The notes beneath the pieces are model-generated. The model worked only from the letters and a program-made list of their open reading frames with translations, did no database searches and was not told the origin of the DNA. From contig CAYWQM010000011.1 of the NCBI GenBank assembly GCA_964460215.1, positions 1,293 to 65,292 of the forward strand: a stretch of DNA of 64,000 nucleotides. Reading direction: 5' to 3'. The DNA is from an uncultured Lentisphaerales bacterium. GTDB lineage: Bacteria; Verrucomicrobiota; Lentisphaeria; JABSQK01; CAJWLW01. The translations under genes and the position numbers were made by a program. Of the stretch, positions 45,601 to 55,744 are shown in pieces; within the stretch, counting starts at the first letter, position 1, and every line of letters begins with the position of its first letter.

Positions 45601-46787
45601 AGCCATTACCCATCCTGCTCACCAGCGCAGTTGTCATGTTCGTCGGCTATATGGCGCATCGTTGCGAGGTCGAGTTCGCTCCGGCGTTTGAACGGCATGA
45701 AACGATGCAGCCACGCATCTGGCACCAGACCCTTGGGGCAATGACGCAGGTTGGGAAGCGGCTGCATACACTGGGGATGGCACTGGCTTTCGTGGCGCTG
45801 TCCGGGTTGTTTGTGCTGCGCTATAATTTGCCATATTCAGCGCTCGAGATGATGCTGTGCGTTGGGCTGTGGGCTGCGCAGTCGGTTTTGTGGTTCCGCG
45901 AAGGACGTGAATGCAAATCCATCGCTGCCAACGCCATTGCACAGGCGGCTGTCGTAGGTCTGTCTCTGGTCATGCGTCGCCAGTTGATGCTGACACATCC
46001 AGAGGTGTGGACGACTGAGTATGACGTCTGGGCGGCGCTCGCGGTGTCGATGTGTATGACCGGCGGCAAACAGCTGATCGACAAACAGAGCAGAGAACTC
46101 CAACTGCCGTATCTGGTTTCGCTCTGTGTCCTGCCTGTGCTGGTGATCGTATGGGTACTGGTGCACGGACTGGGAACGGATATCGGTCTGATAGTGGTGT
46201 TGCTGTACAGCGCGATGTTCACATTCCTCGGCAGGGGGTCAGGCAACTCACCATACAACATCGTGGCGGTGGGCGGGTTTGTTGCCTTCGTGGCGATCCT
46301 TTTCTGGAGCAAGCTCGAACTGCGGGTCTTGCATGCATACGTGATTCCGGCCGGGGTCGGCATTCTGGCGCTGGTGCAGATGTTCGGCAACGAGCTCAGC
46401 CAGCGCTTACGCATGCAGATCCGTGCCGCAACCCTTGCCGCGATGCTTGGGACGACCGCCTATCACGCGCTGCTCGACGATCGTTATCAACCGGCGTTTC
46501 ATATCACGATGTTGTTGCTGAGCCTGGCGATCATGGCTTGTGGAACGCTGTTCCGAATACGGGTCTTTCTATTGTTCGGGGCATGCGGTGTCCTGGTCGA
46601 TCTCTGCACGATCTTTTACAAGGTCACCATCCGTCTCGACGGCCACTACCAGATGACATCATTCGGCGTCATCATCCTGCTTGTGGGGATCGTCCTCGTT
46701 GCCGGAACCGCTTACTACAAGACGCAGCGGCAACAATTCGAGGAGCGCCTGGACGCCTTGCGCGCCTTTTTGGGACGCTGGGACTGA
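39669..46787 (+). CDS. Giant polytopic membrane protein (2,372 aa; DUF2157/SCO7613-like)
   Basis: Uninterrupted 7.1-kb ORF; about 400-aa soluble N-terminus, then roughly 50 or more hydrophobic segments; ENW..VGLVMVIVG and LLPVNF motifs. Confidence 0.8.
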   Translation: MKDERRNELTQLLLQHLHSGTVNLGDVRDVLEELLPGTPPPLAELHEFLDDDSSPAIRQLQQTIFQQMLSDARQCHDRTVAGDTPETTAQQLGLSANVHIGWRDEKGLLPVVHAVTNCLRDKLFLDGRDELYELQNKIDGYFQDSLRSYFEFPARWHGFDPSSVAGEFEQPVAALVEQRHDAALSRVTQGLDALPAPIPGDVDEALLMTELKSRFTAATTRAEQLDLLDVALCWPGDIAAGVIRDLCLEEWAQCRTMLMLAMRFGRSDIDHWAAAVRWLDAQIVARNNRLQALRSKYEEATPYLLFLWSIDAGDQTSELSLTLHDDLKQRAAAGDLGKFVAVWHNHMSPAELNQLTGRRTTEETVAVDADQTGVPDVAGDGEQRPPSGNAPAFWAEHIRPLLHENWYMVVGLVMVIVGTSLLAYFTWDKHWLMRYTVMPALLTGLTIGFAESGNWLERRFAELRGTAIMIRAAAIGLLPVNFMAVALLSNDSQVATHVKWALPVMMLVYMAVFGWGLIRWCRAVHQPSAGRLYPTLLALNLIVPAGAIIRFFHVPEDAVVIVLCLLLYLGFIVLAETIRSFAQKQLTRDMIIDRLIPWFVGGVLVLTYVEVFAWVHWVLHIVPQARHYAMLVVLAGGLIMLVEREYHRKLSGDVPYLPESFIGYAAIVVGILMGFGDQYVRIAVLVLAGGLWLYQATLRKGEAHHWVGLTLLAMGWAAIGTLDAFPRRMELNLLPILGLCIALGIGAIRALARRFGNVELTSAATEFQPAILFLTAIVSILSQWHYRSAPLTTGLTLIVIAAFFAWRAYRAQRLSWVHSTMALLALALPYLGCVDMGGRSLHGNTLVFGLAILSFLWLAMVHWRQSGLLRRARSTVLFAYGAVAVAAMVVRVVMERGRFGETDAVWLTLDLCGPILMAVVLAFAAYHSRSLIPGLMAAVIMAVLFPELKQGLQDRLPIYGWGSGLASAISALALCLVAFPLFQSPRLKALGEGDLFLGHTPFPMQRRDSTLFTIPMLSAAIFLCAKVNTWSVCRNLIGPDGVGLKTAVALTLTGTAWTLLAILLRRRPWSTIMVHLGWLSFFLSITVFVAFHYGYTLRLSTLYGHPEWPLAILFTGILLQLLCLFYHYFEHRLEWLGATLRTPTETVLRIGSMAGGALLCVHLIMLPSRPSVAALCVFVAMQLFWSACKSQKREPAASLKGGLLFFLALVCVLSWTAPGTGPLIPRLTFEYSFSPLLLLVIVTQLVCLAFEWGRERYDRFAPVLVPWQVGTSILALSVAVAAVYDVLLLPPLTITLSQQMLLGAALLLTARTTGSGAFVLFAVTIGFFIANVDALMEIASPVRSWSNPDVVWQRVVYLMTPWRGATLMIALAVVGAIGRLMHQQLTARWLMIGSYPAIQRFVPASSWLFAPAIMLAWLLPLTHAMTPIYRQDPAHLWAPYLGALTCLIVAWSWRQYAVLPRALGLGAGTLLALANVHMINILFGNHGRLATLVGDAGKGLSHIHIVCLGFAFTMLQTIGVRIAVRHAGSRWIVTFGNLILAALILMLLAFNYLVHPDVSQVTSLRLVVSGLLAFGAGHYLRHLSRSNVLGDKAQSMCKGFYHYGVTLALWCLALLIPAMRDPSHALYALGIAPVYFYLRAEFMHRDGGVHAKALQYHHSATLLAFALLALFVFKAAFQMILFPNAVIDTSYYHLNAPLVMLLSILLFRLHGLGGTWWLAFYGGAALVTGTYFFITWCPGLSPFDSYMPAAWVAVAIAHLFTLASHQRSPVRALLQEIARIDGETWLELRRSWGYFILVASQLLVLLGVLDFRSDTYQVAPLLVAAASVWIHHGAIRRSTVYFLVAAVQLLMALHMDFVIASHLDRDHVIWVLVTLWAGIVFGRPLLRRRLPLNQLRVIGLAFCLACVPHVFYHRPDSAVGLWAVFFIAIILAFTPRATKHPQGRSEHGVGLAMLIAPPWLAFFMSVDFASFGLAAVVQPLPILLTSAVVMFVGYMAHRCEVEFAPAFERHETMQPRIWHQTLGAMTQVGKRLHTLGMALAFVALSGLFVLRYNLPYSALEMMLCVGLWAAQSVLWFREGRECKSIAANAIAQAAVVGLSLVMRRQLMLTHPEVWTTEYDVWAALAVSMCMTGGKQLIDKQSRELQLPYLVSLCVLPVLVIVWVLVHGLGTDIGLIVVLLYSAMFTFLGRGSGNSPYNIVAVGGFVAFVAILFWSKLELRVLHAYVIPAGVGILALVQMFGNELSQRLRMQIRAATLAAMLGTTAYHALLDDRYQPAFHITMLLLSLAIMACGTLFRIRVFLLFGACGVLVDLCTIFYKVTIRLDGHYQMTSFGVIILLVGIVLVAGTAYYKTQRQQFEERLDALRAFLGRWD

Positions 46788-46933
46788 ACTGACTTCCAAA
46801 ATCAATACCTCGTATCGCATCAGGTGGCAACGCTTCGTCCGATCGATCATTCGGCACGTTCCGAAATCGCCAGCATTATACCGAGACATCTTCGAATCAT
46901 TCTTTCGTCAAGGCCATTGAACCAATCGGAAAA

Positions 46934-47005
46934 TGTCTGGACAGACTAATTGGGACAGACTAATTTGGACAACTGCGGCTTAGGGACAGCAGGCAACTCA
47001 GGACA
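46934..47005. promoter_or_regulatory. Array of GGACA motifs (operator-like) upstream of the transketolase-like gene
   Basis: GGACA at 46939, 46953, 46967, 46984, 47001; GGACAGACTAATT twice; TGTC-TG-GACA dyad at 46934-46943. Confidence 0.45.
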
Positions 47006-47023
47006 AAACAATTGGAGACAATA

Positions 47024-48868
47024 GTGACGGATCGTGGTGAACTGATCAAACACCTGACCGAGAAAGCGCGGTTTCTGCGAATCAATGCACTGGCACTGAA
47101 CAACCGCACACTGCATGCCGGCGGTGCATTGTCCTCGTCCGATCTGCTGGCTGTGCTGTTCTATCATGTCCTGCGGATCGATCCGCAGAACCCCGACTGG
47201 GCGGACCGCGACGTTTTCATCAATTCCCGCGGACACGCCTGCGAGCCGCTGTTTGTGGCGATGGCGGATCTGGGCTTTTTCCCGTGGGACGACCTGCAGA
47301 ATATCGAAGAAGCCGGCTGCCACCTGCACGGTCTGAGCGCGACCACGACGCCGGGGGTGGAAATTTCCATGGGCTCGCTGGGTACCGGCATTTCCATCGC
47401 CTCCGGCATGGCGTTGAGCATGCGCACACAGCAGCGCCCGGGTCGCGTATACATCATCACCGGCGACGGCGAGCTGCAGGAAGGACTGTCCTGGGAAGGG
47501 GCACTGACGGCAGCTAAATACGGCCTCGAAAACCTGGTAGTCATCGTCGACCGCAACAAGTACCAGTCAAATGACCGCGGCACGGAACAGGTGATGCCGC
47601 TCGAACCGCTGGACGACAAGTTTCGCGCCTTCGGCTTCGCAGTGCGGCGCATCGATGGGCACGACATCGGCCAGATCCTCGAGGCGCTCGAGGCAGCACC
47701 GCTCGCCAGTGGCAAACCGACCTGCATCATCGCCGACACGATCAAAGGCAAGGGCGTGTCATTCCTGGAGTCGGGGCACATCCATTGCGGCCGCTTCGGT
47801 CGTGACATCGATCCGGAACTGCTGAACCAGGCGATTGCCGAGCTGGAGACCGATAGCGCCGCACCGTTGCTGCGCATCGACGTGCGCCGGCAATGTGATT
47901 CGGTCAACGAGATTGCCCTCGGCTCAATTGCCAATGTGTTCAGCGAAAAGCTGCACGAATGGGCAGCGAAAGACCCGCGGGGCTGCTATCTCGGTGGCGA
48001 TACGATGGACGCGGCGTTCCAGGAAAAGTATCCCGCCCGCGCCTTCGACGTCGGTCTCGCCGAGCAGGACGAGCTCGGCCTGGCGACCGGGCTGGCGATG
48101 CAGGGCATGATTCCATTGATCCAGGCGTGGGCACCGTTCACGCCGCTGCGCAACTTCGACCAGTTGCGGACCTATCTGTGCCGACACAATTGCAACGCCA
48201 AAATCATCGGCTGGACGCTCGGCCTGGTCAACAACTCGCACGGTACGACGCATCACGATCTCGAAAGTACCGCACTGTACCGGGTCGTACCGAATCTGAC
48301 AGTGCTCACAGCCTTCGACGACGACCAGTTTCGCCAGGCCTTCGATGCGGCTATGGCGATCGAAGGGCCGGTCATCGTACTGGGGCCGCCCGAGCACTAC
48401 GCACCAGGTGCCGACGGTCTCGAGGAGTTGCCGCTGCCGGCGCACGACGACTACGTTGTCGGCAAGAGCCAGTGGCTCTGCCGCGGCAGCGACGCAACTA
48501 TCGTCACCTACGGCCCGGCCCTGCGCTATGCCTGGCAGGCCGCCGAGAAACTGCGCGCCGACGGTGTGGCGGTCGGCATCATCAACACCACATCAATCAA
48601 ACCATTCGACGCCGACATCATCGCCGAAGCGGCAGCCGCAGCGCCAACAATGCTTGCGGTTGAGGAGCAGACGGTGATCGGCGGCGTCGGCAGCGCCGTC
48701 GCCGAGGTGATTGCCGAGCGCCGTTTGACGACAGCATTCCGCCGCATGGGCATTGCCGATCAATTCGTCGAAGACGTCGGCGACTGGACCTACTGCCGAG
48801 CCGGCGTCGGACTGGCAATCGACGACGTCATACGGAATGTTCAAGAACTTACACAAAGAGGTTCATGA
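47024..48868 (+). CDS. Transketolase-like ThDP enzyme (N-terminal and C-terminal sections of the split type fused)
   Basis: GGAG RBS then GTG; LHAGG, RGHA, PGVEISMGSLGTG, GDGELQEG..DRN, TIKGKG; DVGLAEQ, THH, VEEQTVIGGVGSAVAE. Confidence 0.88.
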   Translation: MTDRGELIKHLTEKARFLRINALALNNRTLHAGGALSSSDLLAVLFYHVLRIDPQNPDWADRDVFINSRGHACEPLFVAMADLGFFPWDDLQNIEEAGCHLHGLSATTTPGVEISMGSLGTGISIASGMALSMRTQQRPGRVYIITGDGELQEGLSWEGALTAAKYGLENLVVIVDRNKYQSNDRGTEQVMPLEPLDDKFRAFGFAVRRIDGHDIGQILEALEAAPLASGKPTCIIADTIKGKGVSFLESGHIHCGRFGRDIDPELLNQAIAELETDSAAPLLRIDVRRQCDSVNEIALGSIANVFSEKLHEWAAKDPRGCYLGGDTMDAAFQEKYPARAFDVGLAEQDELGLATGLAMQGMIPLIQAWAPFTPLRNFDQLRTYLCRHNCNAKIIGWTLGLVNNSHGTTHHDLESTALYRVVPNLTVLTAFDDDQFRQAFDAAMAIEGPVIVLGPPEHYAPGADGLEELPLPAHDDYVVGKSQWLCRGSDATIVTYGPALRYAWQAAEKLRADGVAVGIINTTSIKPFDADIIAEAAAAAPTMLAVEEQTVIGGVGSAVAEVIAERRLTTAFRRMGIADQFVEDVGDWTYCRAGVGLAIDDVIRNVQELTQRGS

Positions 48869-49632
48869 TGCGGCTGAACGACAAAGTGTGTGCCATCACC
48901 GGGGCCGGTAGCGGCATTGGCGCAGCAGCGGCCCGTATTTTCGCGCGTGAAGGTGCCCGGGTCGTCCTACTCGAGATCAATCCGGAGGCGGGCCGACAGA
49001 TCGCCGACGAAATCGGTGACGCCGCGACCTTTATCGAAACCGATGTGTCCGATGCAGCCGCCGTTGCCGCTGCGTTCGAGCAGATTTCGACAGATTTTGG
49101 CCGCCTGGACGGGTTATACAACAACGCCTCGGTGTTCTGGGGTGAGCGCGATGCCAAAGTTACCGAGATCGACCTCGACGTCTATGCGCAGGTCATTGCC
49201 ATTAACCAGCACAGCGTCGTGTACTGCTGCAAGCATGCCATTCCCATGATGATCGCCGGCGACGGTGGCACCATCGTCAACACCGCCTCGAGCGCGGCAA
49301 TCAGCGGCATCCCCGGGTGTACGGCCTATACCGCTGCGAAAGGCGCTACCGTGGCGCTGACCCGGGCCATGGCAGTGGAGTATGCGCCTCAGAAGGTGCG
49401 CGTCAACTGCATCGCACCGGCCGGAATCTACACGCCGATGATCCGCGAGAGTAACCTCGACGATCCGTCGTTCAACGAGGAAGCATTCCTCGAGCGGACG
49501 CCATTGCGCCGCTGGGGGCAACCCGAGGACATTGCCAATACCGCACTGTTCCTGACCAGCGACGACAGCGCTTACATCACCGGCACGATCATCACCGCCG
49601 ACGGCGCCATCACGATCATGCCGGCATTCTGA
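48865..49632 (+). CDS. Short-chain dehydrogenase/reductase (SDR)
   Basis: TGAGSGIG, LYNNA, NTAS, YTAAK, VRVNCIAP; ATGA overlap with the upstream gene. Confidence 0.93.
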   Translation: MMRLNDKVCAITGAGSGIGAAAARIFAREGARVVLLEINPEAGRQIADEIGDAATFIETDVSDAAAVAAAFEQISTDFGRLDGLYNNASVFWGERDAKVTEIDLDVYAQVIAINQHSVVYCCKHAIPMMIAGDGGTIVNTASSAAISGIPGCTAYTAAKGATVALTRAMAVEYAPQKVRVNCIAPAGIYTPMIRESNLDDPSFNEEAFLERTPLRRWGQPEDIANTALFLTSDDSAYITGTIITADGAITIMPAF

Positions 49633-49650
49633 TCACGGACACCGAGTCGC

Positions 49651-49782
49651 ATGACCAATCCTAAATTTCCAGTTGTTTTCCACCGCGGCGTCTATTGCCC
49701 GGAGCAATGGCTACACGTTGTATGGGACAAAGACCGGCCGCCGTCAAATGACGGGAGTGACCGGCAAAAACTGCAAACCTGA
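49651..49782 (+). pseudogene. 43-codon 5' relic of a GH42 beta-galactosidase-like gene
   Basis: MTNPKFPVVFHRGVYCPEQWLHVVWDKD resembles the GH42 N-terminal motif GGDYNPEQWPEEVWEED; it degenerates and stops after 43 codons. Confidence 0.55.
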
Positions 49783-49798
49783 GCCCTCCGAAGTTCTC

Positions 49799-50938
49799 AT
49801 GCCTCCTTCCCAATTCGATACAATCGTCGTCGGTCTCGGTGTCATGGGCAGTTCAATCACCCGTGAGCTCGCCCGCAGAGGCCAGCGTGTGCTGGGTGTG
49901 GATCGAGAACGGCCGCCGCACGTGCACGGTTCGAGTCACGGACACAGCCGAGTTACACGCGAAGTATATGGTGACGACAAACGCTATGTGCCCTTTGTTC
50001 AGCGCACCAACCAATGCTGGCGCGAACTGCAGGAAGCAACCGGTACGCAACTGCTGATCGAATCCGGACTGGTGCTGATGGGCACGCCCGATTCAGCACG
50101 CATTCAGGACAGCGAAGCCAGCAGCCGTGAACATAACCTTCCCTGCGATCCACTTGAGCACGAGGCAATCAGCCGTCGCTGGCCGCAACTGCAATGCGAC
50201 CCCGACATGTGTGGGCTCTGGGATGGCAGCGCTGGGATCCTCCGCGTCGCGCCCTGCATCGAGACACTGCTCGCCCAGGCAGAAGCCAACGGCGCAACGC
50301 TACACTGCACCGCCGCGGCAGAAACCTGGCAGGCTGCTGAGGACCATGTCACCGTGCAAACTGCTACCGAGAGCTGGCAGGCAAGGCAATTGGTGATTGC
50401 TGCCGGGCCATGGCTGAGCACGTTGCTATCCGATCTGGATCTACCGCTGCAATGCGAACGACATGTGCAATACTGGTTCGAGCCGAAATCGAATCCCGAA
50501 AGATTCGCCCCGGGCAACTGCCCGATCTACTCATGGCAGTACGGCAACGATATTATCTACGGATTCCCCGACTTGGGGCACGGCATCAAGGTTGCCCGGC
50601 ACCATACCAAAGAGTTTGTCCAGCCTGATACAGTCAACCGCGACATCAACGATCGTGAACTCGACGAAGTACGCAGCTTACTGGAGAGGTTCATGCCGAC
50701 GGCCAACGGCAGACTGATCGCGCACGATGTCTGCATGTATACCAACACACCGGATTACAACTTCATCATCGACTTTCACCCGGATCATTCGAACGTCCTG
50801 ATCGTCGGCGGCTGCTCCGGCCACGGCTTCAAGTTCGGACCGGTTGTCGGCGAGCTGTCTGCAGACTTGCTGCAGGGCATTCGCGATCCGGGACTCGAGA
50901 TGTTCCAAATTGACCGGCTGATCAATCAATCCAAATAG
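49799..50938 (+). CDS. solA: N-methyl-L-tryptophan oxidase / monomeric sarcosine oxidase family flavoprotein
   Basis: VVGLGVMG, GSSHGHSRVTR, VCMYTNTPDYNFIID (covalent-FAD Cys), CSGHGFKFG. Confidence 0.85.
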   Translation: MPPSQFDTIVVGLGVMGSSITRELARRGQRVLGVDRERPPHVHGSSHGHSRVTREVYGDDKRYVPFVQRTNQCWRELQEATGTQLLIESGLVLMGTPDSARIQDSEASSREHNLPCDPLEHEAISRRWPQLQCDPDMCGLWDGSAGILRVAPCIETLLAQAEANGATLHCTAAAETWQAAEDHVTVQTATESWQARQLVIAAGPWLSTLLSDLDLPLQCERHVQYWFEPKSNPERFAPGNCPIYSWQYGNDIIYGFPDLGHGIKVARHHTKEFVQPDTVNRDINDRELDEVRSLLERFMPTANGRLIAHDVCMYTNTPDYNFIIDFHPDHSNVLIVGGCSGHGFKFGPVVGELSADLLQGIRDPGLEMFQIDRLINQSK

Positions 50939-52221
50939 CGCGGCTGTTGCGCAACGTATTCGTCCAACTGCGCGATCAGCGATGCCGCGGCAGGCGGCGG
51001 GGACTCCGCCAGGTTGTCGACCTCACCGGGATCGCGGGCCAGATCAAAAATCTCTAAACGCCGGCTGTGACGACGCGCGTCGGTGTGCAGGATTACTTTC
51101 CAGCTCGCCGTACGGATCGCGAAAATCTGCCGGTCGTCGCCGCTCAGCGCCTGCCAGCCCGCCGGTGTCGTCTCGCTGAAGGCGACCTCGCGAAATGCTG
51201 TGCCTCCATCGATCAACGGCAGCAGTGACTGCCCTTCCATCCACTCGCATTGCGGCAGGCCGAGCATCTCAAACAGCGTCGGCATGATATCGATCTGTGA
51301 AACCTGTGCATCGACAACCGTGCCCGGCTTCAGCCGCGGCGGGTACCGAAGGATCAGCGGCACTCGAATCGACTCGTCGTAGAGCGTCCCCATCAGATTA
51401 CAGGAGCAATGGCCGACGTGCCCCCGCTCCATGAGCTCCTCGCCGTGATCGGCGGTGAGAATGATCAGTGTTTCGTCGAGAATGCCCAGTGCCTCGAGCC
51501 GGCCCACCCATTCGCCGACCAGGTCGTCGAAGACCCGCACCTCACCATCGTACAGCGCCTGCACAGCACCCCGGTCCTGCGGCTCCAGGTCGACGGCAGC
51601 AGCCGTACGCCGATGCGCTTCATCGGCGTCATCGTCCGGCAGCGGATCCGCCTCGCCCGCCTCCAGTTTGCTGATCATGCCGGAGGGATGAACGATCAGG
51701 AAGTTCCGCACGATCTCCATCCGCGCCATTGTTTCGGGACTCGGCGTTTCGTCAAGGAATTGTTCGAAATACCCGGCCGGCGGATTGTAGGGCAAATGGG
51801 TGGGATACGGTTCCGCATAGAAGAACCACTTGTCGTCCCGATGCCTGTCGAAGTAGGCGGAAATTTCATCGCTCCCGGTGTCGCGCGTGAACCCCAGCGG
51901 GGCCCAGCGCATGACCAGCTCACCATCGACGCAGTATCCGGCGCGCTCAAGTGAATGCAGCGGCGTTTCGACCCCGTCCCAGGCGCCGTCACGCCACTGC
52001 ATGAACCGCTGCGCATCGACGACCCCGTGAGTCGACGGCCACTGGCTCATCAGCATCGAAACAATCGGCGGCAGCGTGTGGGCAGCGGTGGCAATGGCAC
52101 AGTCGAAACGCACCCCTTCGCGGGCCAGTCGATCACAGTTCGGTGTCGTCTCACGTTTGTAGCCGTAGCATCCCATGTGATCGGGGCGCAGCGCATCTTC
52201 AAGGATCCACAGAACATTCAT
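50926..52221 (-). CDS. Sulfatase-like hydrolase/transferase (alkaline phosphatase superfamily), Thr at the nucleophile position
   Basis: EDALRPDHMGCYGY..TTP, AHTLPPIVS instead of C/SxPxR, THLPY, TADHGE, LYDESIRVPLI. Confidence 0.85.
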   Translation of the reverse strand: MNVLWILEDALRPDHMGCYGYKRETTPNCDRLAREGVRFDCAIATAAHTLPPIVSMLMSQWPSTHGVVDAQRFMQWRDGAWDGVETPLHSLERAGYCVDGELVMRWAPLGFTRDTGSDEISAYFDRHRDDKWFFYAEPYPTHLPYNPPAGYFEQFLDETPSPETMARMEIVRNFLIVHPSGMISKLEAGEADPLPDDDADEAHRRTAAAVDLEPQDRGAVQALYDGEVRVFDDLVGEWVGRLEALGILDETLIILTADHGEELMERGHVGHCSCNLMGTLYDESIRVPLILRYPPRLKPGTVVDAQVSQIDIMPTLFEMLGLPQCEWMEGQSLLPLIDGGTAFREVAFSETTPAGWQALSGDDRQIFAIRTASWKVILHTDARRHSRRLEIFDLARDPGEVDNLAESPPPAAASLIAQLDEYVAQQPRYLD

Positions 52222-53141
52222 GATGCAGCGAATCGCTCTGCCTGACCGACGATGTCGACACCGACACGCTCACTCCAGGCATCCAGCAGGCGAGCCGCCA
52301 GCGGACCGGGATAGGCATGACCGACCGGGCGACCATCGATGCAGGAAATTGGCAGGATGCAGAAGGAAGATGTCGTCCAGAACGCCTCGTCCGCTGTGTA
52401 GGCATCATACAACGACAGGTCCTCCTCGACCGCCTCGATGCCCAGATCGCGGCACAGTCCCAGCACGTACTGGCGGCTGGTGCCGACCAGGATGCTGCCG
52501 GTCTTCGGCGTGTACAACACCCCGTCGCGGGCCACGAAAATATTGGCGCCCGTACCTTCTGCGAGGTTGCCGTCGGTATCGAGCATCAGTGCAAACGCAT
52601 CCGGATCCGTGCGTACCGCATCGCGCTTCGAGAGGAAGTGCGGAAAACGTGACCGGTTCTTCATCCGCTGATCATAGGACTGCGCCGGCGGCGACCGAAA
52701 AAAACTGGTCACCACATGTTTGCCGGTTCGATAGTAGCGCGCGTAATCGCTCTGCGGCAGCGGCGCGGTGTAGCAGATGACCGTTGGCGTGGAGGGTTCG
52801 GCGCCCCCCATCAGCGGCATCGGGAAACTTTGGCCGGGCGTCACCTGGATGTTCCCCCAGAGATCGTCGTCCGGATCCGTGAACTGTTCGTTGGCTTCGA
52901 GCGTCTGCGCCAGCGCCTGGTCGAACTGCTGCTGGTCGAGGAGATCCTGCAGCCCGGCATAGGTCAGAGATTTTTCGAGCCGACGCCAGTGTTCGCGCTG
53001 CAGGAACCAGTTGTGCTTAAACGTTCGCAGCGATTCGTAAAGCGTGACGCCGTACATCAGGCCGACGTCAAAGATCGAGATCGTCGCCTGCGATTCCGGC
53101 AGCAGTTCGCCATTGATATATACTTGCCGCTCAGAGGCCAT
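52218..53141 (-). CDS. Class IV (fold IV, BCAT/DAAT-like) PLP aminotransferase
   Basis: VYING, SIFDVGLMYGVTLYESLRT, RMKNRS (PLP Lys), LAEGTGANIF, ILVGTSR, ADEAFWTTS. Confidence 0.9.
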   Translation of the reverse strand: MASERQVYINGELLPESQATISIFDVGLMYGVTLYESLRTFKHNWFLQREHWRRLEKSLTYAGLQDLLDQQQFDQALAQTLEANEQFTDPDDDLWGNIQVTPGQSFPMPLMGGAEPSTPTVICYTAPLPQSDYARYYRTGKHVVTSFFRSPPAQSYDQRMKNRSRFPHFLSKRDAVRTDPDAFALMLDTDGNLAEGTGANIFVARDGVLYTPKTGSILVGTSRQYVLGLCRDLGIEAVEEDLSLYDAYTADEAFWTTSSFCILPISCIDGRPVGHAYPGPLAARLLDAWSERVGVDIVGQAERFAAS

Positions 53142-54006
53142 CGCTTCCCCCGGAATTGTCGCGCACACATCGTCCGACGTCGCGGGCGTGGATGCTCGGA
53201 TGTGCGGCAAATTGCTGCAGCAGCCGCTCGAATGTCGCAAAGCGATCGGCAGTGTACATGCAGATCGGATGTGCCAGTACAGTTGCAACGCCGCCCGCAG
53301 CAGCGATGTGCGTGACCTGCTCCATCACCAATTCGCCCCACCTCTCGATCGTGAACGACTCACTCGTGGGCTCGGTAGTGAACGACCAGTTCTCACGCTG
53401 CTTCTCAACATAAGCCGTCGTGCGATGGGCGTGGTAAAGATGATCATGATCCATTATCACGTTAACTGGATGGGAAATCAAACCGCTGTCGAGCTGCTCG
53501 GGGTAGAGCTTATCCCAGTTCAACTCATCGGAAAGGTAACGAATACCGTGCGCGTGCAGGATTTCGTCGGTGTTGGCATCGTGAACGAAGCCGTGGTTAC
53601 GCCAGGAGACGATTGGCGCGCCCAGACGTTCCAGGGCAATCTCGCACATCCGGCGCACGTCTTCGTCCTGGTCCTCATAGCTGCCATGCGTACCGGCATG
53701 TGAAGTCGCAACACCGCCACTCTCCATTGTTTTCTGTCGCTCAGCTGTCGAACGCGGAAATGCCTCGAACGTATGCCCGGCCACTTCACAGATCTCGACC
53801 GCGGCGATCGGTTCAAACTGCGTCCACTGGTCGGCCAGCGTGCGCCCGGTCACATACAGCGTGCACTTGACATCGTACTTCGCACACAACTGCACATATT
53901 CGAGGCTTACATCGATCTCAGAGATCGTCTGCCCCTGCTCACGCAGCCATAGTTGCTCGTTCGTATCAAGCGTATCGTGATGGGTATCGCCGGTGAGACA
54001 GATCAT
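53131..54006 (-). CDS. Polysaccharide deacetylase (NodB/CE4-like) protein
   Basis: LTGDTH, KCTLYVTG, EVAGHTF, SWRNHG, GGVATVLAHP. Confidence 0.7.
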   Translation of the reverse strand: MICLTGDTHHDTLDTNEQLWLREQGQTISEIDVSLEYVQLCAKYDVKCTLYVTGRTLADQWTQFEPIAAVEICEVAGHTFEAFPRSTAERQKTMESGGVATSHAGTHGSYEDQDEDVRRMCEIALERLGAPIVSWRNHGFVHDANTDEILHAHGIRYLSDELNWDKLYPEQLDSGLISHPVNVIMDHDHLYHAHRTTAYVEKQRENWSFTTEPTSESFTIERWGELVMEQVTHIAAAGGVATVLAHPICMYTADRFATFERLLQQFAAHPSIHARDVGRCVRDNSGGSDGL

Positions 54007-54031
54007 TATTTCGACTTGGTTGTCTTAGCTT

Positions 54032-54135
54032 CCGTGGAACGGACGGTTGGGCCGTCGAATTGAAACTTACAGTATAAATGCAAAAACCGAACCTGTAGCA
54101 GCGACACATAAACTGCCGAGCCATCCGTTCCACGG
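54032..54135. repeat. Perfect 12-bp inverted repeat bounding an 80-nt AT-rich core
   Basis: CCGTGGAACGGA (54032-54043) and TCCGTTCCACGG (54124-54135). Confidence 0.8.
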
Positions 54136-54148
54136 CAGGACGAACAGT

Positions 54149-55264
54149 TCACAACAGCTCTCGGCCAATGTGGTTGGCAAACAGCAGGCCGCGCCGTGTC
54201 GGGCGCAGATGATCCTCGTCGTGTTCAAGCAGACCATCCGCGATCAGGGCTTCGATTTGCAGACGACGCAATTCGAAAAAGTCATAGCCGGTACACTCGC
54301 GATACTCTGATCGCTGCCAGCCGGCCGTCGTACGCAGCCCGGTCGCCAGGATTTCTGCGGCGCGCGCCGGCGGCGACAGCGAATCGAGCTGCGGCGCATC
54401 CCCGTCGAACCAGGCATTGAGGTCCGACGGATTCTGCCAGCGCCCGGCTTCATCGAACCAGCAGGCGGACGGTCCGGCACCGAGAAATCGATGTCCCTTC
54501 CAGATGCGGCAGTTGTGCCGGCATTCATGCCCGGGGCGGGCGTGATTTGAAACCTCGTAGCGATGCATGCCGCAATTCTCCGCAAGGATGCTGTCGGCGG
54601 CCTCCCACATGGCGACGAGCCCGTCGTCGTCGCGCTCGCAAACGCCACGATCCGCCAGCGGCGTACCGGGTTCGACAATCAGTGAATAAGCGGACACGTG
54701 ATCGGGTCCAAGATCCGAGAGCCGACGGACATCGGCAGTGGCGCTTTCGACAGTTTGCCCCGGTGCTGCGAAAATAAGATCACAGTTGATACTGCGAACC
54801 TTACACTGACGGAGGTCATCGAAAACCTCGTAGACCCGATTTACGTCGCCGCCGCGCCCAATAGCCTGCCGGGTGTCTTCGGAAAAACTCTGGACACCTA
54901 TGGAAATTCGGTTGACACCACCGTCCAAAAGGATTTCGATCTTGTCCCGGGTCAGCGACAGCGGATTGCCTTCACAGGTGAATTCGCAATCATCTTGCAG
55001 GCTGAAATACCGGCGGATCATTGTCATCAGGCGCAGCAGCTCGCCCGGGGCGAAATGCGTCGGCGTACCGCCGCCGAGGTAGATCGTTGCCAGCGGACCA
55101 CAGCGTGCACTCAGCATATCGAGTTCAGACTCGAGTCGATCGAGAAAACGTCCGCGCAGACTGCGATCTGCTCCCTCGATCGAGAGGAAGGCGCAATAGT
55201 CACACTTGTGCGCACAGAACGGCAGGTGCACATAGATATCTGAAATGGATGAAGCCGACACCAT
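54149..55264 (-). CDS. hemW: Radical SAM heme chaperone HemW (HemN-like)
   Basis: YVHLPFCAHKCDYC (CX3CX2C), IYLGGGTP, EGNP, NRISIGVQSF, YEVSN, HNCRIW (HNxxYW-like). Confidence 0.88.
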   Translation of the reverse strand: MVSASSISDIYVHLPFCAHKCDYCAFLSIEGADRSLRGRFLDRLESELDMLSARCGPLATIYLGGGTPTHFAPGELLRLMTMIRRYFSLQDDCEFTCEGNPLSLTRDKIEILLDGGVNRISIGVQSFSEDTRQAIGRGGDVNRVYEVFDDLRQCKVRSINCDLIFAAPGQTVESATADVRRLSDLGPDHVSAYSLIVEPGTPLADRGVCERDDDGLVAMWEAADSILAENCGMHRYEVSNHARPGHECRHNCRIWKGHRFLGAGPSACWFDEAGRWQNPSDLNAWFDGDAPQLDSLSPPARAAEILATGLRTTAGWQRSEYRECTGYDFFELRRLQIEALIADGLLEHDEDHLRPTRRGLLFANHIGRELL

Positions 55265-55339
55265 CGTGTACCGGTTTGGAATCGAAGATCAGGGAACAGT
55301 ACCTTATCACATGAAAGTTCACGACAACCCCACACGGCA

Positions 55340-55744
55340 ATGATATCTTCAAACGATATGACCGATGCCGCGAGGCAACACAACAACCGCTTTGCGACAT
55401 TCATGGCACGCTGGCACTACAGCCTCGTGTTGCTGGTCGCGTATCTCGGCGTTTTTCACACCTGGATCTACGCTTCCTCGCGTACGGCTATAGCTGTCAT
55501 CGGCGTCTCCGCGTGTGCTGCGCTGGTGCTCTACATGCTGCTGGTACCGCACTACTTTGCGAACGGCATGGACCGACTGGCGCATGGCATGGTGATCCTC
55601 GACCTGCTACTCGAAGCACTGCTGCCGATCATCCATGACCACTATGGCTTTTATCTATGCGCCCTGGCGTTCACTGTCATCGTCGGCTGGCACAGGGCCC
55701 GGGTGTTATCTCGACCTGCACGCAACGGCACAACGCAAGAATGA
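55340..55744 (+). CDS. Small hypothetical membrane protein (about 4 TM)
   Basis: Four hydrophobic helices; stop overlaps the next ATG (ATGA). Start may be 55358. Confidence 0.6.
   Translation: MISSNDMTDAARQHNNRFATFMARWHYSLVLLVAYLGVFHTWIYASSRTAIAVIGVSACAALVLYMLLVPHYFANGMDRLAHGMVILDLLLEALLPIIHDHYGFYLCALAFTVIVGWHRARVLSRPARNGTTQE

Follow-up and report, generated by a model that had tools for sequence, protein, structure and literature searches.

Several described systems resemble, in part, the gene cluster reported here. In the NagA/NagB route for N-acetylglucosamine 6-phosphate (GlcNAc-6-phosphate), a phosphorylated amino sugar is deacetylated and then loses its amine, which yields a keto sugar for central metabolism. 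The kanosamine modules NtdC/NtdA/NtdB and RifL/K/M/N, the latter with the Orf15 transketolase, serve biosynthesis, with an aminotransferase of fold I and a phosphatase of the HAD type, while the sulfo-transketolase and apiose transketolase pathways employ split transketolase paralogues on atypical sugars. We analyzed 64,000 nucleotides (nt) of DNA from an uncultured Lentisphaerales bacterium (GenBank assembly GCA_964460215.1, contig CAYWQM010000011.1, positions 1,293 to 65,292), this whole stretch being called the window, and found in it a cluster of three overlapping genes (the trio; g1, g2 and g3) that encode the following proteins:

53131-54006, minus strand: g1, a divergent CE4-fold (beta/alpha)7-barrel amidohydrolase of 291 amino acids (aa), cytoplasmic
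52218-53141, minus strand: g2, a fold-IV (class IV) pyridoxal phosphate (PLP) aminotransferase of 307 aa, counted from the ATG at 53141
50926-52221, minus strand: g3, a sulfatase-fold enzyme of the alkaline-phosphatase superfamily, 431 aa, cytoplasmic

Like the NagA/NagB route, the chemistry proposed for the trio would deacetylate an amino sugar and then remove its amine, and a NagC-type regulator lies near the trio at many loci. However, the enzymes are non-homologous: a CE4 barrel takes the place of the amidohydrolase NagA and a PLP transaminase that of the isomerase-deaminase NagB, and the trio cluster adds a dedicated esterase and a transketolase-like enzyme. The kanosamine modules likewise combine a dehydrogenase, an aminotransferase and a phosphatase on a sugar phosphate, to which the rifamycin cluster adds a ROK protein and a split transketolase, whereas the trio has a fold-IV enzyme, a sulfatase fold and a deacetylase in a catabolic-looking context; the proposed chemistry would thus mirror kanosamine biosynthesis with unrelated enzymes. 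An extra split-type transketolase paralogue and a reductase of the short-chain dehydrogenase/reductase (SDR) type in a dedicated sugar-utilization cluster are also features of the sulfo- and apiose transketolase pathways, but those contain no deacetylase, aminotransferase or esterase of the alkaline-phosphatase type. An earlier note on this DNA stated that no pathway with these three genes was known, and we found no description of the trio, or of a Thr-type cytoplasmic sulfatase-like enzyme, in the searchable literature. The trio proteins belong to known superfamilies, yet none of them qualifies for a characterized family, because g1 falls short of the CE4 threshold and motifs, g2 of all equivalog cut-offs and g3 of the sulfatase motif. 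Tentatively, and with slightly less than even confidence, we read the trio as one cytoplasmic module for a single N-acylated, negatively charged small amino compound, most likely an unusual amino sugar or aminopolyol with a phosphate ester.

The gene overlaps were read directly from the sequence. g1 and g2 overlap by 11 nt (ATGGCCTCTGA, which includes the g1 stop codon), and g2 and g3 overlap by 4 nt (ATGA). The mechanical open reading frame (ORF) of g2 starts at a TTG at 53288, upstream of the ATG at 53141; alignments showed that the ATG starts of the trio genes agree with the N-termini of their homologues, and for g2 this is the ATG at 53141. The N-termini open with the first conserved strand (MICLTGD..., MASERQVYING... 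and MNVLWILEDALRPDH...), and since each protein begins there, g1, g2 and g3 have no signal peptide. The description of three overlapping genes without signal peptides in the earlier note was therefore confirmed. At the other end of the trio, g3 and an oxidase gene of the N-methyltryptophan oxidase (MTOX) type on the plus strand are convergent, and their 3' ends overlap by 13 nt (50926-50938), so that the terminal codons are common to both. Taken on gene structure and distribution, the trio is an operon or coupled module: its genes lie on one strand, overlap, and keep their linkage across distant taxa.

The linkage was evaluated in two scans: one with a g1 alignment against one genome per species, which gave 80 loci, and one with a g2 alignment against metagenomes, which gave 80 more. 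Homologues were assigned to the trio type by tblastn mapping (at least 40% identity for g1 and at least 45% for g2), and a locus was regarded as informative if all three genes were found or if at least 3.5 kb of sequence was available on both sides. The results showed that trio-type g1 and g2 were almost always accompanied by the remaining two genes, and that the full trio was present in 37 of the 41 informative loci, covering about ten phyla and eight arrangements. A linkage of this extent over many phyla goes far beyond what chance would give, and the lack of conservation that the earlier note named as grounds for abandoning its idea was not what we found. With the counterparts of g1, g2 and g3 written as CE4, AT4 and SULF, the commonest orders were CE4-AT4-SULF (17 loci), CE4-AT4-Ord-SULF (6), AT4-SULF-CE4 (4), AT4-CE4-SULF (4) and CE4-Ord-AT4-SULF (3), where Ord stands for the Ord-like dehydrogenase described below. 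Trios occur in Lentisphaeria, Kiritimatiellaeota, Verrucomicrobiota, Spirochaetes, Omnitrophota, Desantisbacteria, Pirellulaceae, Bryobacterales, Armatimonadota and Zipacnadia, and start/stop overlaps within the trio recur in other lineages. Pairwise identities of CE4 and AT4 were closely correlated (Pearson r = 0.90). The closest relatives are marine metagenome-assembled genomes (MAGs) labeled "Lentisphaeria bacterium" (91-95% identity). Of 40 genomes related to the window genome, only three, all from the same genus, had a close homologue of g1 (91-93% identity), and one genome of the same order had a 32%-identical g1 match from a distant subfamily; this restriction indicates that the trio is an accessory module. 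No cultured organism with the trio was found among the genomes scanned, so its function can be reached only through heterologous biochemistry.

For g1, the fold is clearer than the family. The protein scored 20.7 bits against PF01522 (Polysacc_deac_1), under the Pfam gathering cut-off of 23.1, and gave no match to NCBIfam models; the Pfam assignment is borderline for the whole g1 family, many homologues having a precomputed PF01522 match. The AlphaFold (AF2) model of g1 (predicted local distance difference test, pLDDT, 86.8) was compared with solved structures by Foldseek, and the best folds were 3rxz (a mycobacterial putative deacetylase), HP0310, PuuE allantoinase and ArnD (template modeling score, TM, ~0.62; identity 12-17%). 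The distorted (beta/alpha)7 barrel was recovered with Foldseek probability 1.00 to the CE4-type structures 3rxz, 3qbu, 3cl6, 8t0j and 2w3z, with TM up to 0.64. In canonical CE4 enzymes, the motifs TFDD (Asp-Asp) and H-S/T-x-x-H provide an Asp-His-His metal triad. These motifs are not kept in g1, which has T-G-D7-x-H9-H10 and a G-H78-T without a second His at +4. The family alignment showed invariant D7, H9, H78, R136, H138, D160, D186-H-D-H189, H192, H194, R195 and H246, and the invariant His and Asp residues sit at the C-terminal ends of strands; R136, D160 and H246 have counterparts in CE4 enzymes, and the D186-H-D-H-x-x-H-x-H-R195 segment is extra. PuuE, HP0310 and ArnD, which are soluble or associated with the membrane, hydrolyze amides or formamides of small molecules or of lipid-linked amino sugars, and the substrates of the fold neighbors are N-acyl or N-formyl amino sugars and cyclic amides; g1 differs from these three in its low identity, in keeping a single His of H-x-x-x-H and in the extra His/Asp-rich segment. 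We read g1 as a divergent, putatively metal-dependent amide hydrolase with a CE4 fold. The CE4 deacetylase named in the earlier note stands as far as the fold is concerned, but it is marginal by sequence and its active-site pattern is non-canonical. Longer fused forms of g1 were searched for and none was found, which is weak evidence.

Distant g1 homologues (~30-35% identity) were found in Nitrospirota, Cloacimonadota, Chthonomonas, Myxococcota and others (loci L040-L085; for example L044 8001-8828 and L057 8001-8825). They form a separate subfamily without linkage to AT4 or SULF. These genes lie in a conserved block of their own with a multi-copy family of ~385-aa proteins and with genes for proteins of ~410 and ~305 aa; the ~385-aa family might, at a guess, be glycosyltransferases.

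g2 was assigned to its class more easily. It scored 138.3 bits against PF01063 (Aminotran_4; cut-off 28.5) and has the catalytic Schiff-base Lys and the cofactor-binding Glu of class IV enzymes: K161 aligns with the catalytic Lys of branched-chain aminotransferases (BCATs), the E195-G-T-G-A-N motif is kept and R54 is present, so that the fold-IV PLP enzyme proposed in the earlier note was upheld. However, g2 lies under every NCBIfam equivalog cut-off for BCATs, D-amino acid aminotransferases (DAATs) and aminodeoxychorismate lyases (ADCLs), with 138 against 245 bits for TIGR01122, 94 against 277 for TIGR01121 and 62 against 177 for TIGR03461. In the PDB, archaeal BCATs and (R)-amine transaminases come closest to it. 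Where BCATs contact the carboxylate through Y95 and R97, g2 has W and N, and an Arg (R165) takes the place of Y164, a Tyr hydrogen-bonded to the cofactor. The g2 clade has the signature R159-x-K161-x-R163-x-R165, K172, W95 and N/C97, and a near-invariant active-site set was found in about 70 members from many phyla (Y30, E36, R39, H43, H51, R54, W95, T-P-G, F-P, R159-x-K-x-R163-x-R165, K172 and T-T-S-S-Y-C). Outgroups with 30-39% identity differ at many signature positions, and R159, R163, R165 and K172 vary there. The simplest reading of this pattern is that the g2 clade acts on a single conserved substrate, and the near-invariant, Arg-rich signature around the catalytic Lys suggests that this substrate is probably anionic.

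g3 has the fold of a sulfatase without its catalytic motif. Its Pfam scores were 121 bits for PF00884 (Sulfatase) and 76 bits for SGSH_C; in Foldseek, the top 50 matches of its AF2 model (pLDDT 86) were all S1 sulfatases or phosphonate monoester hydrolases (PMHs), with the GlcNAc-6-O-sulfatase BT4656 at the top. The two-domain fold of the S1 sulfatases, PMH, SpAS2 and EfAS recurs in g3 (TM 0.65-0.71; PF00884 and SGSH_C), and all trio-type homologues keep the metal ligands D9, D258 and H259. The same Asp ... Asp-His ligand set is common to PMHs, SpAS2 and the Enterococcus enzyme EfAS (PMC12421950). In contrast to these enzymes, g3 is cytoplasmic and has a Thr in the nucleophile position instead of formylglycine. 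T49 aligns by HMMER with the Cys or Ser of solved sulfatases that forms formylglycine, and the motif is H-T-L-P-P-I in g3 instead of C/S-x-P-x-R, the Arg being replaced as well. H48-T49-x-P51 is invariant, with Thr49, which stands next to the metal site, present in 19 of 19 trio-type homologues. In sulfatases, the Lys of the K-G-x-x-Y-E-G-G segment contacts the sulfate or the leaving group; this position is M277 in the window g3 and is variable in the family.

Other enzymes of the alkaline-phosphatase superfamily use a Thr nucleophile for phosphoryl or phospho-alcohol transfer. g3 resembles such enzymes (EptA/MCR-1, LtaS, NPP, PafA, PhnA and phosphopentomutase) in having a Thr beside the metal site, but sequence similarity to them is very weak (E ~1e-4 to 1e-6, over short stretches) and far below the cut-offs; against the EptA, CptA, LtaS and MCR models, g3 gave E-values of 1e-6 to 1e-2 and 15-24 bits, compared with cut-offs of 400-1250. 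These enzymes are mostly membrane-anchored or exported and have no C-terminal domain of the SGSH_C type. We also searched 1.84 billion cluster representatives with a g3 profile and inspected the 150 nearest representatives of 50%-identity clusters. Thr occupied the nucleophile column in 136 of them, mostly in a W-T-x-P-S motif (P0124-P0270), and most of 20 inspected N-termini of these Thr-type relatives were hydrophobic and resembled signals or anchors; the trio-type H-T-x-P proteins form a small cytoplasmic offshoot of this large Thr-type group. In the ESM Atlas, only generic "sulfatase" and "polysaccharide deacetylase" clusters were found. Since an invariant Thr replaces Cys/Ser, formylglycine cannot form and g3 is almost certainly no sulfatase; given what Thr nucleophiles do elsewhere in the superfamily, it is best read as a putative Thr-nucleophile phospho(di)esterase. 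The authors of SulfAtlas also state that Thr cannot be oxidized to formylglycine and that Thr-type PF00884 members are not to be counted as sulfatases (PMC5066984). The earlier assignment of g3 to enzymes that act on sulfate or phospho groups thus holds for the sulfatase fold, while the Cys/Ser-x-P-x-R motif needed for formylglycine is absent.

The genes within 8 kb of the complete trios (n = 37) give the trio a recurrent setting. ROK proteins that have an N-terminal winged helix-turn-helix (wHTH) and are closest to NagC in full-length alignment occur at 15 of the loci, and split transketolase-like N and C subunits at at least 10. The split transketolase-like genes are additional to a canonical transketolase of ~670 aa in four of five other trio genomes and are therefore specialized paralogues. 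An Ord-like dehydrogenase, with 295 bits on the 2,4-diaminopentanoate dehydrogenase (Ord) model, was present at 12 loci, in many of them between AT4 and SULF. Other recurrent neighbors are URO-D/MtaA-like proteins (12 loci), SDRs (about 11), GFO/IDH/MocA oxidoreductases (8, directly after SULF in Armatimonadota), MTTB-like proteins (6), a class III aminotransferase (4), a GH3 enzyme closest to NagZ (3) and an SSF symporter (3, in Pirellulaceae). Binding proteins closest to NgcE or UgpB, together with small CBM9-like proteins, lie near complete trios, and some loci have E1 alpha/beta pairs. The fullest version of the cluster is a co-directional operon of 16 genes from one uncultured bacterium (L017 1-16100), in the order ROK, MTTB-like, E1 alpha, E1 beta, FMN reductase, Zn-dependent alcohol dehydrogenase (Zn-ADH), AT4, Ord-like, CE4, transketolase N, transketolase C, two URO-D-like genes, class III aminotransferase, SULF and CBM9-like. 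No riboswitch or other Rfam match was found in the window at 46500-55500 or in nine related loci.

In the window itself, three plus-strand genes converge on the trio, and the unit is larger than three genes:

47012-48868, plus strand: transketolase-like gene, 618 aa, with Pfam Transketolase_N, Transket_pyr and Transketolase_C; probable accessory gene
48865-49632, plus strand: SDR gene, adh_short_C2 223 bits, translationally coupled to the transketolase-like gene; probable accessory gene
49673-50938, plus strand: FAD amine oxidase of the MTOX/sarcosine-oxidase family, DAO 173 bits; possible accessory gene

The transketolase-like protein is a fusion of the split-type N and C subunits and is 40% and 32% identical to those of the 16-gene operon. 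It is the sole good Transketolase_N match (131 bits) of the window genome, which is 94.6% complete; a canonical transketolase (~670 aa), present in four other genomes with the trio, was not found in it. The NCBIfam scan gave no pathway-specific transketolase family, only generic transketolase and DXS models, all under cut-off. The SDR passed the cut-off of the NCBIfam "glucose 1-dehydrogenase" subfamily (243.8 against 215), and the FAD oxidase scored 390 bits against NF008425 (N-methyl-L-tryptophan oxidase; cut-off 257). We considered whether the MTTB-like and URO-D-like neighbors might form a corrinoid demethylase for which the window oxidase is an aerobic substitute. This idea is unsupported: the loci examined yielded no corrinoid-binding protein, and it is only within the window genus that the oxidase and the trio are linked. 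No Ord-like gene or NagC-like ROK was detected in the window genome with the queries used. Elsewhere, this genome has a NagA above cut-off and a NagB-like gene just below it; we therefore rejected the trio as a stand-in for missing NagA/NagB, and the presence of both genes indicates that it serves a substrate other than that of the standard GlcNAc route.

A recurrent ORF (cluster c11; L014 3226-4344, plus strand; L025 3563-4615, minus strand; and equivalents) of 350-372 aa, rich in Arg, Ser and Pro and without a Pfam match, runs antisense, opposite to the flanking genes, where other loci carry the transketolase C subunit. It is most likely an antisense shadow ORF of the C-subunit gene and not a gene.

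The data show how the genes are arranged, to which families and folds their products belong, that Thr is substituted in g3, which active-site signatures mark the clades, that the genes are linked across phyla and which accessory genes recur; the catabolic direction, the kind of substrate and the order of steps are inferred. g1, as a metal-dependent CE4-fold amidohydrolase, would strip the N-acyl group. g2, from a fold class specialized for D-amino acids and (R)-amines, would turn the freed amine into a ketone, with its Arg-rich pocket holding the anionic group, and g3 would remove the phospho-ester group through a phospho-threonine intermediate. An NAD(P)-dependent dehydrogenase (the SDR in the window, GFO or Ord-like enzymes elsewhere) would then reduce or oxidize the keto or hydroxy product, and the specialized transketolase-like enzyme would cleave the result to central sugar phosphates in the pentose-phosphate network. 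In the most economical version, of four steps, the dehydrogenase would adjust the carbonyl before g3 takes off the phosphate ester. Linkage across phyla, coupled translation and invariance of the active sites argue for a single pathway on one N-acylated amine with an anionic ester. The NagC-type regulators, the uptake components, the GH3 and CBM9-like proteins, the ever-present NAD(P) dehydrogenase of varying family and the transketolase paralogue suggest that the pathway is catabolic and handles an unusual amino sugar or aminopolyol not accepted by the NagK/NagA/NagB route. The earlier note proposed a cytoplasmic route of de-N-acylation, deamination and de-esterification, which is consistent with all of these findings, except that sulfate removal, one of its options, becomes the least likely one in view of the invariant Thr.

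Several points weigh against the proposed module. A kinase is not consistently present near the trios, which leaves the origin of a phosphate ester unexplained, and phosphorylated solutes are not the usual cargo of SSF symporters, the transporter type present at the Pirellulaceae loci. The scheme has no place for the recurrent URO-D-like and MTTB-like genes, which have no corrinoid protein nearby. The rule that a Thr nucleophile means phosphoryl transfer is a generalization from other members of the superfamily and may not extend to g3. SULF distances correlate loosely with those of CE4 and AT4 (0.6; Spearman ~0.25), a weak co-evolution that suggests two SULF subtypes or occasional replacement. 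Members without partners within 10 kb also exist, namely one AT4 (L099; 67% identical, in an unrelated context) and two lone CE4 genes (L029 and L045). Finally, all trio loci come from MAGs or metagenome contigs, some of them duplicated between two collections, and 29 are non-redundant.

A bolder form of the same reading, which we consider somewhat unlikely, is that the trio is the core of a previously unrecognized, widespread pathway by which the cytoplasm processes a blocked hexosamine or an amino-sugar ester that is abundant in the environment. In such a pathway, a CE4-fold deacylase and a fold-IV transaminase acting on a sugar would replace NagA/NagB, a sulfatase-fold enzyme would have become a Thr-based phosphoesterase, and carbon would exit through the dedicated transketolase paralogue. 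If true, a fold-IV transaminase acting on a sugar would be the first for that fold.

Among the alternatives, the one that survives best is an amino-acid substrate in place of a neutral sugar amine, such as an N-acetylated D-amino acid, a 2,4-diamino acid or a 2-amino-2-deoxy-aldonic acid (hexosaminate); we regard it as unlikely. The last compound is formally a D-alpha-amino acid and arises from C1 oxidation of a hexosamine. g1 would deacetylate the substrate, g2 would act as a D-amino-acid-type transaminase to give a 2-keto acid, the Ord-like dehydrogenase would take the second amine, and thiamine diphosphate (ThDP) enzymes (transketolase-like or E1 alpha/beta) would decarboxylate or cleave the keto acid. 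This would fit fold IV as the D-amino-acid fold and the invariant g2 R39, the equivalent of BCAT R40, as well as the strong Ord-model score of a gene often placed between AT4 and SULF, the glucose 1-dehydrogenase assignment of the window SDR and the E1 pairs at some loci. However, the BCAT contacts to the alpha-carboxylate are replaced in g2, which stays under all DAAT and BCAT equivalog cut-offs, the Ord-like gene was not detected in the window genome with the query used, and the role of g3 stays unexplained.

Decidedly unlikely, in our view, is a biosynthetic, kanosamine-like role, in which a sugar phosphate is oxidized to a keto-sugar phosphate, g2 aminates this, g3 dephosphorylates the product to a free amino sugar or aminocyclitol, and g1 trims a protecting acyl group. 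Dehydrogenase, aminotransferase and phosphatase together would repeat the chemistry of NtdC/NtdA/NtdB and RifL/K/M, and GFO, SDR, ROK and transketolase-like genes recur near the trios, which may be compared with the ROK kinase and split transketolase of the rifamycin 3-amino-5-hydroxybenzoic acid (AHBA) cluster. But the ROK proteins at trio loci are regulators and not kinases, as shown by their wHTH and their alignment to NagC, none of the trio-cluster enzymes is homologous to the Ntd or Rif enzymes, and it is not obvious what a deacetylase would do. The loci contain uptake components and GH3 hydrolases, and no glycosyltransferase, export or tailoring genes were seen.

A sulfate ester after all, for example a 6-O-sulfated hexosamine that is barred from the NagK/NagA/NagB route until g3 desulfates it, is very unlikely. 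The fold of g3 is closest to S1 carbohydrate sulfatases, with BT4656 as the top match, the trio occurs mainly in sulfatase-rich lineages (the Planctomycetes-Verrucomicrobia-Chlamydiae (PVC) group and Pirellulaceae), and a sulfated solute would fit the missing kinase. Yet the formylglycine motif is absent in every member, the CxPxR Arg and the KGxxYEGG Lys are replaced (the latter by Met in the window g3), and we know of no Thr-nucleophile sulfatase. SulfAtlas excludes Thr-type proteins (PMC5066984). Adjacency without a shared pathway, by chance or selfish co-transfer, could draw on the three lone members and the weak co-evolution of g3 with g1 and g2, but is hardly credible against a linkage that survives reordering of the genes across about ten phyla (37 of 41 informative loci), the frequent translational coupling and an accessory gene set common to the loci.

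If the proposed module is correct, polysaccharide degraders of the PVC group, Armatimonadota, Spirochaetes and candidate phyla would share an undescribed route for an amino compound outside the textbook GlcNAc pathway, and this would close a gap in how the turnover of carbon and nitrogen in the sea and in sediments is modeled. The trio is an uncharacterized, widely distributed metabolic module, and it gives a handle on two large misannotated protein groups. Thr-type "sulfatases" probably inflate the sulfatase counts of PVC genomes, and their annotation should be corrected to show that they are not sulfatases. The Arg-rich pocket of the g2 clade could be of interest to biocatalysis for (R)-selective amination of polar or anionic ketones.

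Upstream of g1 lies hemW. We treated it as unrelated to the trio, neither as a maturase nor as an operon member: its product passes the HemW equivalog cut-off, and the gene is linked to the trio in this genus only. The gap between hemW and g1 contains one further feature, found by a repeat search:

54029-54138, no strand assigned: imperfect inverted repeat with 27-nt arms, within a ~105-nt insertion between hemW and g1

The inverted arms are 81% complementary and 56 nt apart; the repeat occurs once in the genome and matches no Rfam family. The ~105-nt insertion is present in the window genome and in one related genome (G001) and absent from two others (G002 and G003), where a single arm (CCGTTCCACGG) is left and the hemW-g1 gap measures 40 nt. 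The gap insertion is an indel-polymorphic, hairpin-forming element.

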